From Candidatus Heimdallarchaeota archaeon (GTDB taxonomy: Archaea > Asgardarchaeota > Heimdallarchaeia > Heimdallarchaeales > Kariarchaeaceae): 32,000 nt of DNA. A program made the position numbers and the translations under genes. The stretch covers positions 570,001 through 602,000 of the forward strand of contig JASBSB010000006.1 of assembly GCA_030149205.1 (NCBI GenBank), read 5' to 3'. Shown one piece after another: positions 20,098 through 31,989 of this stretch. How positions within the stretch are numbered: the stretch's first letter is position 1; every line of letters starts with the position of its first letter. Under the pieces are notes generated by a model. That model did not search any database and had not been told where the DNA came from. It saw nothing but the letters and a program-made list of their open reading frames with translations.

Positions 20098-23000
20098 TTA
20101 TTGACCGGATGTACGTTTAAAGAATCCTTTTTTGTTTACATATTTTACTATCAACGCACCAATGACGAATGTAGAGATAACTGTAACATCCATCGGAATT
20201 GCAAATCCATTCTGTTGTCCAAGTTTTTGGAAAATAAGTGGGCTGTTGAATGAAAATACCTGAGAGTTGGTGCCTGTGTAACCCAATCCAGCGTTAAGTG
20301 AAAGATAAATTGTTCCGTTTGTGATGGGGAGATGAATAAGGAAACTGGTCTCTGTTATATCCAATGTAAAGGTTTGATTTCCAATTACCAACATACCCTT
20401 GATTGGAACACCATTGAGTGAGAGTTGAGTTCTTAGGTCTATGGTTGTCAACTGAAACAGTCCAGTTCCATTATAGAAGGTAGGTGTCACAGATATTTGA
20501 ATTGGAATATCCAAAAGCATAAATTTCCCTGTGAGAGTCAAATCAGCATAGTTTTGTTTATGTCTTGTTATGTTGTAATTAAGGTCCTGACCTTGATGGA
20601 TCTGTGAATAGAATCCCTGAAGTAATTCAGAGGAGGTCAAGTTGTTTCGACTGTAGATGATAGAGTTATTAGAATAAATTATGATATCATAACTTGCATT
20701 ATTGACTTGATCACTCAGTGTTCCGTTAATAAGACGATCCCAAAACTGATCAGAAATCTTGTACTTGAAGGATTCATATCTTGGGTTCACATTCATGGGA
20801 ACTTCAGTGGCAGTGCTAGAAATCTGTACACCACCTGTGGTTGAGATATAAAGGGTATACCTCCCGGGTTTTAGATCAATTGATGATTTAAGAAGAGTAA
20901 ATGCCCCAAATCTGTTTGTTTGCATTGTAGTTTTCCCCCATGGGGTTGAAATATAAACACTCACGTTGTAGAGAGGTTGACTTGAATTTCCATTGTTGTA
21001 AACATAAAATGTTTGATTAATTGTACCCAGATAAGAAGTATTAATCATCTTCACCTCAATCACAGGTGTTGGTGCTCTCCATCCAAGGTCAACAATAAGA
21101 GGTGAGCCCTGGACAAAAAGTGTGTTTTCTTGATACTCGAAGATTATTCTGTAACTCCCTGTAAGGGAGAAGTAAAGTGAATAATATGAGGAGGAACCAA
21201 GCTGTATCTTGCCAGAAACCCCAGTGTTTATCCAGTTGCCATTCTTGAATTGTAACAACAGCCATTTAACACTCCCTTTGTGTATCACTCCTGTTTCATC
21301 ATTAACTGAGAAGGCTAAAGTTTGATTAAATGTCACACCATAATCTTTGGTGTGAGCTCTGTCCAACAGAACTCTGACTGTCTCCTTTTGAGTGGTGGGA
21401 AGAGTATAATTTACAGAACTGCTACTGAGGAGACTGTTTCCATTAAATTGTACTGTGAGGGTGTAAATGCTCCCAGGAACCACATCACGGAATATGGAAT
21501 GAAGTGTGATAAACCCAGATTGATTGGTGAAGGTTTCAAACGAAAAGAATATCTTATTGTTCATTAACAGGGTAAACCTAACAGATTGATTTGACAACCC
21601 CTGTCCATAGGAGTTTTCAGTCAACCTTATACTCACATTTAATCCATCTGTGTAGATTGGTTGAATAGATTGACTGTTGATCAGTGTAAGTGTGGTACTT
21701 TGAAGTATACTTAAGCGAGCATGTAGAATCACTCCAGCATAGACCGATGTTGAACTTGCCGTGAGTTGGATGTTATAAGTGCCAAAGGGAACATCTGGTT
21801 TTATCATAAATTCCAAAATACCATTCTTTATGCTTGATGAAGCCAAGCTCGTCCAGCTTCCATTAATTTGGATTGAGAGAGTGGCACTAACACCAGAAAC
21901 CTTCTGGCCATCATTATCAAGCAGGATATATCTAAGAGTTACAGATTCCAATCTGTTTACCTTAACATCGTTAAACTGGACTGAATATTTTTCATGAGCA
22001 ACAGTGAGGCTAAATGACGAGTTCACGTTTTGCCTTATCCAACCCTGGTTTGGAATAACCACCAGAATCTTGTAATTACCAGTCACCACAGTTGTGTTTA
22101 AGCTGTTGATTGATCTTGTGTCATAACGACCCCAGAGGGTGTAGGTAGACCCACCCGTGCCATAATTTATCCAGTATATATCTGCAAAGTAGCTTTGAAG
22201 AATACTGCCATTGTCTAATTTAACTACAAACATAGGGTGAAAGATGTCATATCTTTCTACAGTGCTGTTTAGGAGGGAGACATTTACTATTGATTGAAAC
22301 TTGGTGGTGATGAGCTTTGAATTTCCTAAAACATAAGAGTTTGAACCAATCTCAACTTTATACTGCTCACTAACAGTAGATTGAGGAATTACAAAGGCAA
22401 ATCCACCGTTAACAGTTGATATATTCCCCATTATAGTCCACTGCGACCCTGAAAAAATGTAGAGGAGCACATTAACCTCAGGGGGTGAGACTGTGTTGAT
22501 GGATATTGTTCCTGTTATGGCTGGATTAGAGTTTATTTCACTCATCTTTACATATAGCTCTCCTGTGGGGGCTTTAGAGAAAACTTTGATATTCTCTGAA
22601 AATTGATGAAAGTTGAAATTCTTATCTTCTATTAGCAGAAAGAGCTCATGTGACATGGTAAATCTGACATTAAAGGTAAAGGTGACATACCCTTTAGAAT
22701 CTGTTAAACCTTGTCCTATTAGGATAGTTACTGAATTTAAGTTATAAGTCACAGTTACCTGCATCCCTTTAAGGGGATCTCCCAGGCTGTTTGTGACAAT
22801 AACCTGAATTCTTGAATTATTGGTGTAGACAAGTTCAGTGAGATTGACTGTCCTATTGAATGTATCTTCTAATATTGTTCTACTTATAGAGGTTGTACCA
22901 TCTAGATATGATAAGTGAGTGCTATGTATACTTAACAGCAATAATGAACCTGCGGGAGAATCTAAGGTATAATTGAGTGTCATATAGCCAGTTGAGTTAG

Positions 23001-31246: not shown

Positions 31247-31989
31247 ATTACACCTAACTCCACATATCTTAGAAATGTGTCTGGATCCTCTTCTGGGTGA
31301 GACACTACTTGCATCGCTTTTCGATTTCTTAGCTCCATCACAACAAAAATAACCAATTGACTCAGAGTAAGTAATGAGGTATTTTCGAGTCCTAATGCAG
31401 GAACAAAGAATATTGAGCTAAAGATGATCCCAGCTAACATCATTAGTGTTAATGGGTGATCCCTGCCCATTAAAACAAAGACTCCAAAAAGTTCATTTGA
31501 TCTAGGTAATCCAGATATGAAGATTGAGACTATAATATACCACAGCATAAAATAGCTAAAATATACATTAAATCCATTATAGACCAAAAAAAGGATCAGA
31601 TTATCCTGGTAGATAAACAACAGGAGGTCAACAATTATCAAAACATATGGGGCAAAAAGAAAGGTTACCTCAGCCTTGAAATTTTGCCTTAGATTTACGC
31701 CCAGACCTACATATACTCTATCAAAGGTAATTGCAATTCCACTTGTGATATCACCTGAAAACAATCGGACAACAGTAAGTCTAATAAACAGTTTTGAGAG
31801 CGTTCCAATAAAGAATATTCTGTTAAGCAATCTAAACACTGTATCATCATTGTATTTGACTGCTGTAAATCTTAGCAATCTTAGAAATTGAGCAAGAATG
31901 AACTCATGGACAATAGGGAAGAAGAGCAAAGCTAAGAAAAAAGCAAGGACAATATACGAAATCTGATAGACAATGCTTAGATCCATCAC
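31243..31989 (-). CDS. Hypothetical multi-TM membrane protein, possibly a degenerate M50/zincin-like fold
   Basis: About 6 hydrophobic segments; FPIVHEFIL, FLFAPYVL and IIVSIFISGLPRSNEL. GTG at 31989 or ATG at 31986. Confidence 0.7.
   Translation of the reverse strand: MMDLSIVYQISYIVLAFFLALLFFPIVHEFILAQFLRLLRFTAVKYNDDTVFRLLNRIFFIGTLSKLFIRLTVVRLFSGDITSGIAITFDRVYVGLGVNLRQNFKAEVTFLFAPYVLIIVDLLLFIYQDNLILFLVYNGFNVYFSYFMLWYIIVSIFISGLPRSNELFGVFVLMGRDHPLTLMMLAGIIFSSIFFVPALGLENTSLLTLSQLVIFVVMELRNRKAMQVVSHPEEDPDTFLRYVELGVI

Follow-up and report, generated by a model that had tools for sequence, protein, structure and literature searches.

A vertically inherited gene cluster of Heimdall-group Asgard archaea links a predicted VirB4/HerA-type pseudo-ATPase with a giant surface protein and might handle DNA at the membrane

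A fast-evolving gene cluster, vertically inherited in Heimdall-group Asgard archaea, brings together a giant, apparently membrane-anchored surface protein, a VirB4/HerA-type protein whose nucleotide site seems to be lost, and paralogs of DNA-processing enzymes. We tentatively read this cluster as a membrane-anchored DNA-handling or exchange system that may couple the surface protein to the DNA-processing proteins, and we would place this reading somewhat short of probable. Four of the genes lie in the window, i.e. the whole 32,000-nt stretch of DNA analysed, and the preliminary description regarded these four as a cell-surface system. The linkage of the giant speaks for that view, but it was incomplete, as it left out the upstream XPD and RadA paralogs with their intact motifs. 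No published description of this cluster was found in a literature search.

The four-gene stretch and the wider cluster

The genes for P0001, P0002, P0003 and P0004 (the giant) follow each other on the minus strand; the first two overlap by 4 bp, and gaps of 151 bp and 36 bp separate the second from the third and the third from the fourth. The ORF calls thus bear out the co-orientation, overlap and gaps that had been claimed for them. The positions in the window are as follows.

31243-31989, minus strand: P0001 gene, 248 aa, GTG start (ORF call)
31894-31908, minus strand: HEFIL, the supposed HExxH remnant, P0001 aa 28-32
29963-31246, minus strand: P0002 gene, 427 aa, TTG start (ORF call)
30422-30454, minus strand: P0002 Cys cluster, aa 265-275, SWIM-like without the His; C268 and C275 invariant in 4 sequences
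29812-29962, minus strand: gap of 151 bp in front of P0003; a TTTATTAA box precedes the TTG by about 30 nt (a motif-level hint)
26497-29811, minus strand: P0003 gene, 1104 aa, TTG start (ORF call)
29242-29811, minus strand: P0003 N-terminal alpha/beta domain, aa 1-190 (VirB4-like CD1110-family models and TrwK alignment)
28402-29220, minus strand: P0003 RecA-like core, aa 198-470 (VIA-align and Foldseek)
29125-29154, minus strand: P0003 collapsed P-loop site MTLIGDTDRL, aa 220-229 (alignment and model)
28639-28674, minus strand: P0003 Walker-B-like strand GGTLIIDVTELS, aa 380-391 (alignment of 12 sequences)
27412-27579, minus strand: P0003 acidic low-complexity stretch with NEELQEET repeats, about aa 745-800 (translation)
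26500-26904, minus strand: P0003 conserved C-terminal domain, about aa 970-1104 (aligns with the homologues in genomes G001 and G007)
26461-26496, minus strand: 36-bp gap; its promoter-like box, TCCCTC-TTTAAATAAGTA, begins 30 nt ahead of the giant's ATG
20098-26460, minus strand: P0004 (giant) gene, 2120 aa, ATG start (ORF call)

Neither P0001, P0002 nor P0003 had a family match in Pfam, NCBIfam or PADLOC, word-indexed homologue searches with the three proteins returned nothing beyond the own protein or the input sequences, and Rfam and tRNA scans of the window found nothing.

The preliminary description suspected that the cluster may extend beyond the right edge of the window, and indeed nine further co-oriented genes follow there, up to a RadA paralog at C2:614832. 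The whole cluster comprises at least 13 genes in about 25 kb (C2:590098-614832), the four-gene stretch being its downstream end. The upstream genes encode an XPD helicase paralog (GAGKT, DEAH and four Cys intact), orphans, small membrane proteins (117 and 182 aa, with TM segments by hydropathy), a dead tandem RecA-like protein and the RadA paralog, in which the Walker A motif (GKAQTGKT) is intact. An upstream protein of 1105 aa showed no relation to P0003 by BLASTP or hhalign. Elsewhere, homologues of XPD, a 176-aa gene, P0001 and P0003 recur together in metagenome locus L028, and XPD-like, P0003-like and 1105-like genes form a paralogous trio on contig C90 of G001.

Sequence elements shared by the promoter regions connect the giant with upstream genes. 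The arrangement TCCCTC-N1-2-TTAAATAA occurs just twice in the 3.3-Mb genome, before the giant gene and before the 1105-aa gene, while three of the 15 genomic copies of a 13-mer fall within the cluster, each 29-32 nt ahead of the start of one gene (giant, XPD and 1105-aa). Shared rare promoter boxes are present in G001 and L028 as well. The upstream XPD and RadA paralogs, together with the rare box that the XPD and 1105-aa genes have in common with the giant gene, point to DNA handling at the membrane and not to surface assembly alone.

Predicted folds of P0003, P0001 and P0002

Residues 1-470 of P0003 were modelled by AF2 (pLDDT 71), and the predicted fold is of the VirB4/HerA type, on which Foldseek, VIA-align and ESM Atlas searches agree. 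With VIA-align, the core (aa 198-470) aligned with VirB4 (4ag5, Z 9.8), DndH-C (9.7), DotL (9.2), HerA (9.1 and 8.9) and TrwB (8.2), and aa 4-465 with TrwK (7o42, Z 6.8); the top nine of the exhaustive search were all VirB4, DndH-C, DotL, HerA, TrwB and Cag-beta (Z 6.8-9.8). Foldseek against the PDB found TrwK/VirB4, Cag-beta, HerA and DndH-C at E values of 7e-5 to 1e-3, a shape search of the ESM Atlas found VirB4-like CD1110 proteins over aa 5-470 (TM 0.49-0.51), and the lead given by language-model features is consistent with a fold of this type. P0003 shares with VirB4/TrwK/CD1110 ATPases and HerA translocases the two-domain architecture, the RecA-like core and the helical insertions. Unlike them, it is missed by the DUF87 model (a search of the genome left P0003 undetected and found seven canonical DUF87 genes elsewhere), it has lost the catalytic motifs, and it carries an extra C-terminal extension of 630 aa, with the acidic NEELQEET region, weakly conserved in the family alignment, and the conserved end domain.

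The 1104-aa product had been described as HerA/VirB4-like without Walker A, and both the fold searches and the alignment of 12 family members confirm it. The P-loop site of P0003 reads LIG-DTDRL; G224 is invariant in the family, whereas GK[ST] is present at this site in 0/12 members and nowhere in the whole P0003 sequence. The modelled strand runs to aa 223 and the helix sets in at aa 226, with just two residues between. The Walker B Asp is kept in 10 of the 12 sequences, and the residue after it is C, T, V, I or L, in no case Glu. Judged from alignment and model, the nucleotide site is destroyed throughout the 12-member family, and P0003, on this prediction, cannot be a motor. A VirB4-like protein that cannot hydrolyse ATP calls for caution with any DNA-handling reading.

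The family itself is tiny, as only 11 relatives of P0003 were found among 1.84 billion (1.84e9) representative proteins, and among 400 genomes of the phylum it is confined to family f1. Its 12-member profile matched no sequence in the PDB and showed no profile similarity to a 1049-aa protein of the sister family f2. A complex prediction for the N-terminal domain of P0003 with P0001 scored 0.00, which counts neither way.

P0001 is a polytopic membrane protein with about five hydrophobic segments by hydropathy. Its homologues (29-31% identity) occupy the same position in G001 and G002, and a further one is found in L028 (E 5e-20). A Pfam search up to E 1 gave no match. The earlier proposal that P0001 faintly resembles an M50-type zincin keeps only the backing of language-model features (M50B/DUF3267 at 0.85, next to an Asgard orphan cluster at 0.92), but its HEFIL argument fell: relatives have HYFIF and QVIVF at this place, and the zincin reading from HEFIL as a conserved motif was rejected. 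P0001 is possibly a degenerate M50B-like zincin. When P0001 is compared with a VirB6/CedA-like channel, there are the roughly five TM segments, and its sole outside likeness is that to M50B/DUF3267.

P0002 is soluble and belongs to a tiny family. Its AF2 model has a pLDDT of 48 overall, above 70 only for aa 310-427, and the N-terminal 240 aa (about 30) could not be modelled. It had been likened to SWIM and PIN domains. The SWIM half of this idea survives in so far as relatives conserve a three-Cys cluster of the form RC-x-C-x5-C-x-GKL; the His of the CxCxnCxH motif is absent, and Pfam SWIM (PF04434) gave no match. The PIN-like fold was rejected, as it found support in no search. In the SWIM region, hhalign of P0002 with the SWIM/DEAD helicase of f2 gave E 5e-4 at a probability of 29-31%. 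Language-model features pointed to HTH_61/Helicase_dom4_arc (0.87), VIA-align of the model to Hjm (Z 6.3), Hel308 (6.0) and Brr2 (5.7), none above background, and Foldseek with this low-confidence model found no match. The C-terminal half of P0002 weakly resembles the winged helix and helical module of Hel308-type helicases, of whose two RecA motor domains no trace was found, Pfam detecting neither DEAD nor Helicase_C. It needs to be mentioned that the assignments of P0001 and P0002 call for caution at such weak scores (a feature score of 0.85 for the former, Z of about 6 and about 30% in hhalign for the latter).

P0003 is as near to HerA (Z 8.9-9.1) as to VirB4, and paralogs of repair enzymes dominate the cluster. 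One might thus imagine a cytoplasmic DNA-repair complex, built on a dead HerA-like platform with a helicase, nuclease-like and RadA-paralog partners, to which the giant would be a conserved neighbour and no physical or functional partner. In fact, a HerA-fold protein accompanied by helicase and recombinase relatives also recalls the archaeal HerA-NurA (Mre11-Rad50) end-resection module. However, we consider such a complex unlikely, because the cluster is interspersed with three or four membrane proteins, the giant shares a promoter box and stays linked through at least four gene-order arrangements, and no NurA-like nuclease family was detected in the cluster. Mre11 and Rad50 families were not found there either, and the dead ATPase, the membrane proteins and the surface giant in the neighbourhood likewise set the cluster apart from the HerA-NurA module.

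The giant and its linkage to P0003 in relatives

By its sequence, P0004 is predicted to be an Ig-repeat (Big_1-type) membrane-anchored surface protein, with all three features of this class present. Hydropathy marks a signal-like hydrophobic stretch at the N-terminus (aa 6-24) and, before a short basic tail, a TM segment near the C-terminus (aa 2087-2105, window 20146-20202). In Pfam, Big_1 scores 83.2 bits against a cut-off of 34.9, and CarboxypepD_reg 44.2 bits against one of 32.3. Hydropathy and the Big_1 match thus agree with the earlier claim of a secreted protein with a C-terminal anchor. The 2120-aa sequence has 55 N-x-S/T sequons and no cysteine, and it is one of only six open frames of at least 2000 aa in this genome. 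Full-length, collinear orthologues of 2111-2154 aa are present in G001-G003, L029 and L032, so that the length stays at about 2110-2150 aa even at less than 30% identity. The giant, being conserved, single-copy and of fixed length, might also simply be the main envelope protein with a TATA-like box of its own, which calls for caution with the DNA-handling reading as well.

The preliminary description was to fall if homologues were not co-located in related genomes; they are co-located, and the refutation fails. The P0003 homologue adjoins the giant gene in this genome and in G007, and in G003 some 4.5 kb separate the two. In G001 the P0003 homologue is followed by the same five genes until the contig breaks off, and another contig starts with the giant's orthologue, the layout being presumably that of G003. 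Among metagenome loci, the P0003 homologue adjoins the giant in L029/L030 and L032 (collinear orthologues of 2111-2121 aa) and a 2702-aa fn3 giant in L031, while in L028 the giant lies about 7 kb from it, next to the XPD-like gene. In every interpretable context, a member of the P0003 family is next to, or at most 7 kb from, an Ig- or fn3-repeat membrane-anchored giant, though these loci are not independent counts, as related genomes inherit synteny by descent. The link between P0003 and the giant is real across deep divergence.

Of 31 genomes of the sister family f2, 27 have a giant of 2109-2121 aa in a single copy. It is alike in length and architecture to that of f1, with weak BLAST similarity (E 8e-4 to 1e-6). 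In all six neighbourhoods inspected it is accompanied, in permuted order, by a RadA paralog, the 1049-aa protein and the DEAD/SWIM helicase, the RadA paralog being directly upstream of the giant in four and three genes upstream in two. The RadA paralogs of f1 and f2 correspond (hhalign 99.9%), which is the sole correspondence shown by sequence; the P0001-like match in f2 is weak (E 1.3e-4).

On one hand, such linkage would suit a system concerned with the surface only, where the dead enzymes scaffold the assembly, anchoring or signalling of the giant and the upstream DNA-enzyme genes form a separate unit. The pairing of P0003 with the giant is the most widely conserved link, L029, L031 and L032 have no recognised DNA enzyme beside the pair, P0001 is membranous, the giant has a short cytoplasmic tail, and its single copy and fixed length are those of a structural envelope component. 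On the other hand, the giant gene shares the twice-in-genome box with the 1105-aa gene and the 13-mer with XPD, it adjoins the XPD gene in L028, and it keeps the RadA paralog close by in f2. Furthermore, the cluster yielded none of the known surface-assembly factors, be it a sortase, archaeosortase, glycosyltransferase or secretion ATPase. An arrangement for the surface alone seems improbable to us.

VirB4-like proteins are hallmarks of conjugative elements. It could thus be assumed that the cluster is what is left of an integrated conjugative element or virus, or else an anti-phage island beside a CRISPR array, as an array of 55 repeats lies 600 bp past the giant gene. Cluster proteins also evolve fast (20-30% identity within the genus versus 52% for XPD), and the XPD paralog matches the type IV DinG model in PADLOC. 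Yet this helicase is the sole cluster match to the defence library, and the defence-system reading was rejected for this reason. No integrase, relaxase or capsid family turned up in the cluster, its GC content is like that of its surroundings, three species of the genus and a second genus have it in single copy and in the same gene order, and the f2 giant occurs in 27 of 31 genomes. Moreover, the CRISPR array and the S25e gene do not adjoin the cluster in relatives, and the window holds no cas gene. A mobile or defensive origin is therefore very improbable.

Comparison with known systems and a possible role

The Ced system, found in Sulfolobales, and the Ted system of Thermoproteales are chromosomal VirB4/VirB6/VirB2 DNA-import systems, domesticated from type IV secretion, that transport cellular DNA, with Rad50 and HerA-like genes often present in Ted loci (PMC9905601). 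The present cluster is likewise chromosomal and vertically inherited, it combines a VirB4/HerA-fold protein with polytopic and small two-TM membrane proteins, and, as in Ted, repair genes are present at the locus. By this analogy, a role in the exchange of cellular DNA followed by recombination seems plausible. However, the cluster shares no sequence similarity with either system, and P0003, without P-loop and Walker B Glu, is not an active VirB4-type motor. Nor was a VirB6/CedA-like channel or a VirB2-like pilin identified in the cluster, which has a giant Ig-repeat adhesin in place of the pilus and, in addition, XPD and RadA paralogs and several pseudo-enzymes.

A large cell-contact surface protein together with VirB4/HerA-type genes is also known from PrgB-type Gram-positive conjugation adhesins and archaeal fusexin (Fsx1) islands, which are on mobile elements with active ATPases (PMC9259645). 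In contrast, the cluster is chromosomal and single-copy, its ATPase is dead, and neither fusexin nor PrgB domains were detected, the Pfam matches being Big_1, CarboxypepD_reg and MG domains only.

Under the DNA-handling reading that we tentatively prefer, P0003 would form a ring-like, ATP-independent platform at the inner face of the membrane, docked there via P0001, the small membrane proteins and the giant's anchor and tail. The giant, glycosylated, would contact another cell or extracellular DNA. The handling of DNA that crosses the membrane might then fall to the XPD paralog (the one obvious motor), the helicase-derived P0002, the RadA paralog and the dead RecA-like partners. In this scenario the system would serve DNA exchange or uptake and recombination, similarly to Ced and Ted, while being built largely from pseudo-enzymes. 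A bolder and rather doubtful version is a dedicated chromosomal mating and recombination apparatus of the Heimdall group for contact between cells and the exchange of DNA, in which a species-specific giant glycoprotein adhesin is wired through a dead VirB4-like ring and membrane pseudo-enzymes to the XPD and RadA paralogs.

Independently of function, the tiny P0003 family that is always found near a giant surface protein, and the fixed length of that giant, point to a defined structural unit. If the DNA-handling reading is right, a dedicated, vertically inherited machine joins a surface recognition protein to recombination enzymes, and it would offer a genetic handle on how, or whether, Asgard archaea exchange DNA. 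Also striking would be that a whole system rests on catalytically dead scaffolds, with most parts being retained pseudo-enzymes. Heimdall-group Asgard archaea are the nearest known archaeal relatives of eukaryotes, and the mating apparatus, if true, would be a system with no parallel described so far, and perhaps a prokaryotic precursor of sex-like genetic exchange.

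The gene cluster and its surroundings

ORF calling in the window (C2:570001-602000) of the genome analysed (G000; 3.3 Mb in 12 contigs) returned four minus-strand genes whose lengths and junctions agree exactly with the preliminary description: P0001 (248 aa), P0002 (427 aa), P0003 (1104 aa) and the giant P0004 (2120 aa). According to hydropathy, P0004 begins with a hydrophobic N-terminus and ends in a TM segment with a short basic tail; its repeats match Big_1 and CarboxypepD_reg, both over Pfam cut-offs, and it contains 55 N-glycosylation sequons and no cysteine. P0001, P0002 and P0003 found no family match in Pfam, NCBIfam or PADLOC. 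The left part of the window is occupied by housekeeping genes (canonical RadA, aRF1, Trm56, an E1-like enzyme, PCNA, GINS, S25e). The following features accompany the four genes:

Window 2847-4145, plus strand: canonical RadA with HhH domain (Rad51, 256 bits), ~26 kb from the RadA paralog of the cluster
Window 15876-19510: orphan CRISPR array, ~55 copies of a 30-nt repeat (GTCTAAGAAGTACCTTTATGGTCTGGAAAC) with ~36-nt spacers
Window 19622-19891, minus strand: ribosomal protein S25e gene, between the CRISPR array and the giant gene
Window 27412-27579, minus strand: acidic NEELQEET tandem repeat in P0003, inside a long disordered linker not conserved in relatives

No cas genes were found in the window, and the ORFs listed inside the array, the "182-aa" one among them, were rejected as artefacts of the repeats. 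Genes downstream of the giant differ in the relatives, which argues that this boundary of the cluster was rearranged in G000.

P0003 as a predicted pseudo-ATPase

It had been claimed that P0003 resembles HerA/VirB4 ATPases without Walker A, and both fold searches and motif loss bear this out: as judged from a predicted structure and from sequence, P0003 is a VirB4/HerA-fold pseudo-ATPase. The AF2 model covers aa 1-470 (six sequences in the alignment, pLDDT 71). Foldseek matched it in the PDB to TrwK/VirB4, Cag-beta, HerA and DndH-C (E 7e-5 to 1e-3). An independent VIA-align comparison with 48,161 chains placed VirB4 (Z 9.8), DndH-C (9.7), DotL (9.2), HerA (9.1 and 8.9), TrwB (8.2), HerA-DUF (7.4), Cag-beta (7.0) and TrwK (6.8) in its top nine, covering aa 198-470, or aa 4-465 in the case of TrwK. 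A shape search of the ESM Atlas retrieved VirB4-like CD1110-family proteins matching over aa 5-470 (TM 0.49-0.51), which suggests that the N-terminal domain, too, is VirB4-like.

Where Walker A is expected, the family has h-h-L-x-G, with an invariant G224, followed by variable residues, and GK[ST] occurs there in 0 of 12 members. With the strand running to aa 223 in the model and the helix starting at aa 226, the loop appears collapsed. The Walker B strand retains its Asp in 10 of the 12 sequences, the subsequent Glu in none. The state of both motifs across the family indicates that ATPase chemistry was lost at the family root, and the family appears to have stayed intact since. It is a small family: an exhaustive search of 1.84 billion representatives with its profile yielded 11 relatives only, and among 400 genomes of the phylum it is confined to the family of G000 (f1), in 5 of 11 genomes. 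Identity between P0003 and its same-genus homologues is just 21-26%.

Linkage of P0003 to giant surface proteins

The proposed link between P0003 and the giant proved to be conserved when co-location was checked across related genomes and metagenome contigs. Giant orthologues are 28-29% identical over their full length (2115-2154 aa). The giant directly follows P0003 in G000 and in G007, a member of another genus, and lies ~4.5 kb downstream of the P0003 homologue in the same-genus relative G003, with five inserted genes between. In G001, also of this genus, contig C20 ends with these five genes behind the P0003 homologue and contig C7 begins with the giant orthologue, so that the layout is probably that of G003. 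In G002 the giant orthologue starts a contig other than that of the P0003 homologue. The four most distant family members, all on metagenome contigs, have a giant nearby in 4 of 4 cases:

P0012: followed by two Ig giants (2111 aa and at least 2039 aa)
P0013: ~7 kb from an Ig giant (at least 2222 aa) that abuts an XPD-like helicase; directly upstream, homologues of the 176-aa cluster protein and of P0001
P0014 (745 aa; L031, ENA contig 1693-12238): preceded by fn3 giants (2702 aa and at least 969 aa)
P0015: followed by an Ig giant (2121 aa)

The Ig giants of G000, G003 and the metagenome loci L029 and L032 are collinear across ~2000 residues. Since P0014 pairs with fn3-repeat instead of Big_1-type giants, the pairing seems to survive a swap in the partner's repeat type. 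Open frames of at least 2000 aa number only six in G000, so that a giant is not expected to recur beside P0003 by chance, although the loci share descent and are not independent trials.

Surface genes and DNA genes in one cluster

As had been suspected, the cluster runs past the window's right edge, where nine further co-oriented genes were found. Reading upstream from the edge, they are:

Gene 1: 176-aa protein
Gene 2: XPD/DinG-type helicase, 608 aa, retaining GAGKT, DEAH and four Cys
Genes 3 and 4: membrane proteins by hydropathy, 182 aa and 117 aa
Gene 5: 1105-aa orphan
Gene 6: 360-aa protein
Genes 7 and 8: 563-aa and 531-aa proteins, a single fused gene in a relative
Gene 9: RadA paralog, 423 aa, Walker A intact

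G000 has one housekeeping and one cluster copy of RadA and likewise of XPD, the cluster XPD being a second copy beside the better-scoring one at C7:350437-350946. G001 retains the gene order between the fused 531+563 protein and P0003, and on the short contigs of G002 and G003 the downstream portion of it is kept, beginning at the XPD-like or P0001-like gene. In G001 an extra 854-aa gene (L011, 8743-11307) stands between the gene for a 176-aa (182-aa-like) membrane protein and the XPD gene; its G000 orthologue sits elsewhere (C8:150124-152283, 36% identity).

P0001 is a membrane protein with ~5 TM segments. It had been likened to zincins; its HEFIL motif is not conserved (HYFIF and QVIVF in relatives), but a resemblance in language-model features to M50B/DUF3267 zincins stands (0.85), weaker than that to an uncharacterised Asgard cluster (0.92). 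Its relatives also have a GLPIPQD stretch, which we take to recall the second M50 motif of the site-2 protease family. A degenerate M50B-like P0001 is a lead, not a result. For P0002, three Cys are conserved in position in the SWIM-like arrangement proposed before, although the His is absent, and the PIN-like alternative drew support from no search. It modelled poorly in AF2 (pLDDT 48 overall, >70 for aa 310-427 only) and its top structural matches, Hjm, Hel308 and Brr2 (Z 5.7-6.3), are not over background. Language-model features point to the Hel308 domain-4 and HTH_61 families, and hhalign matches the SWIM-plus-winged-helix region of a DEAD/SWIM helicase from the giant cluster of the sister family, f2 (E 5e-4, probability 29-31%). 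Because these three weak, independent hints agree, P0002 may be a helicase derivative without the motor.

Several features are evidence that the surface genes and those for DNA belong to a single unit. The giant, XPD-like, P0001-like and P0003-like genes stay linked although they are arranged differently in the genus of G000, in the metagenome locus L028 and in L029/L032. In G001 a second locus (L009, G001:C90:2401-6537) again combines XPD-like, P0003-like and 1105-like paralogs; there a 563-aa P0003-like protein lies between a 1105-like fragment and a divergent XPD-like gene of 25% identity. On both strands of the 3.3-Mb genome the box TCCCTC-N1-2-TTAAATAA is present at exactly two places, the 36-bp gaps before the giant gene and before the 1105-aa gene. 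Its 13-mer core has 15 copies in the genome; the three that belong to the cluster precede the starts of the giant, XPD and 1105-aa genes by 29-32 nt, a position that would suit an archaeal TATA box and a leader that is short or lacking. Relatives have shared boxes of their own, before the 1105-like, XPD and 117-aa genes in G001 and before XPD and P0013 in L028.

In f2 the giant is single-copy in 27 of 31 genomes (~30% identity, 2109-2121 aa) and is linked in 6 of 6 neighbourhoods from three genera to a RadA paralog, a 1049-aa orphan, small proteins and a DEAD/Helicase_C/SWIM helicase. This module lies ahead of the giant in one genus and behind it in another, and one closed genome has a weak P0001-like gene in a 4-bp overlap with the giant's start. 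Profile comparison of f1 with f2 gave clear homology for the RadA paralogs only (99.9%). The f2 length of 2109-2121 aa was seen in full-length matches from three genera (L045/L046, G020:C1:101512-125331); so tight a conservation is unusual for a repeat protein.

The preliminary description read the locus as a surface system. Its pseudo-ATPase and the link to the giant stand, while a purely surface system is no longer what we favour beside these DNA genes; a surface scaffold only is nevertheless viable, and so is a cytoplasmic repair complex with the giant as a bystander. An origin from a mobile element or a defence system is unlikely: genes for integrase, relaxase or capsid are absent from the cluster, nothing in it but the DinG-type (XPD-like) helicase matches the defence library, its GC is normal, it is single-copy and vertically conserved, and the CRISPR array beside it is not conserved in relatives.

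Ced and Ted are domesticated conjugation systems whose loci also recruit repair genes (PMC9905601). In contrast to these and to T4SS, the motor of the G000 cluster is predicted to be dead and VirB6 and VirB2 were not identified in it, and thus it is probably not a member of any of them; it may work like them nevertheless. Our literature search found no description of such a cluster. New for G000 are the fold assigned to P0003, how large its family is and how far it ranges, the giant pairing in metagenomic relatives and the genome-rare promoter box common to the giant and upstream genes. The best reading, by analogy with Ced and Ted, is membrane-anchored DNA exchange or uptake, in which the giant would be the contact device, P0003 would serve as a passive ring or platform and XPD as the motor, and the recombination end would fall to the RadA paralog and its dead RecA-like partners.
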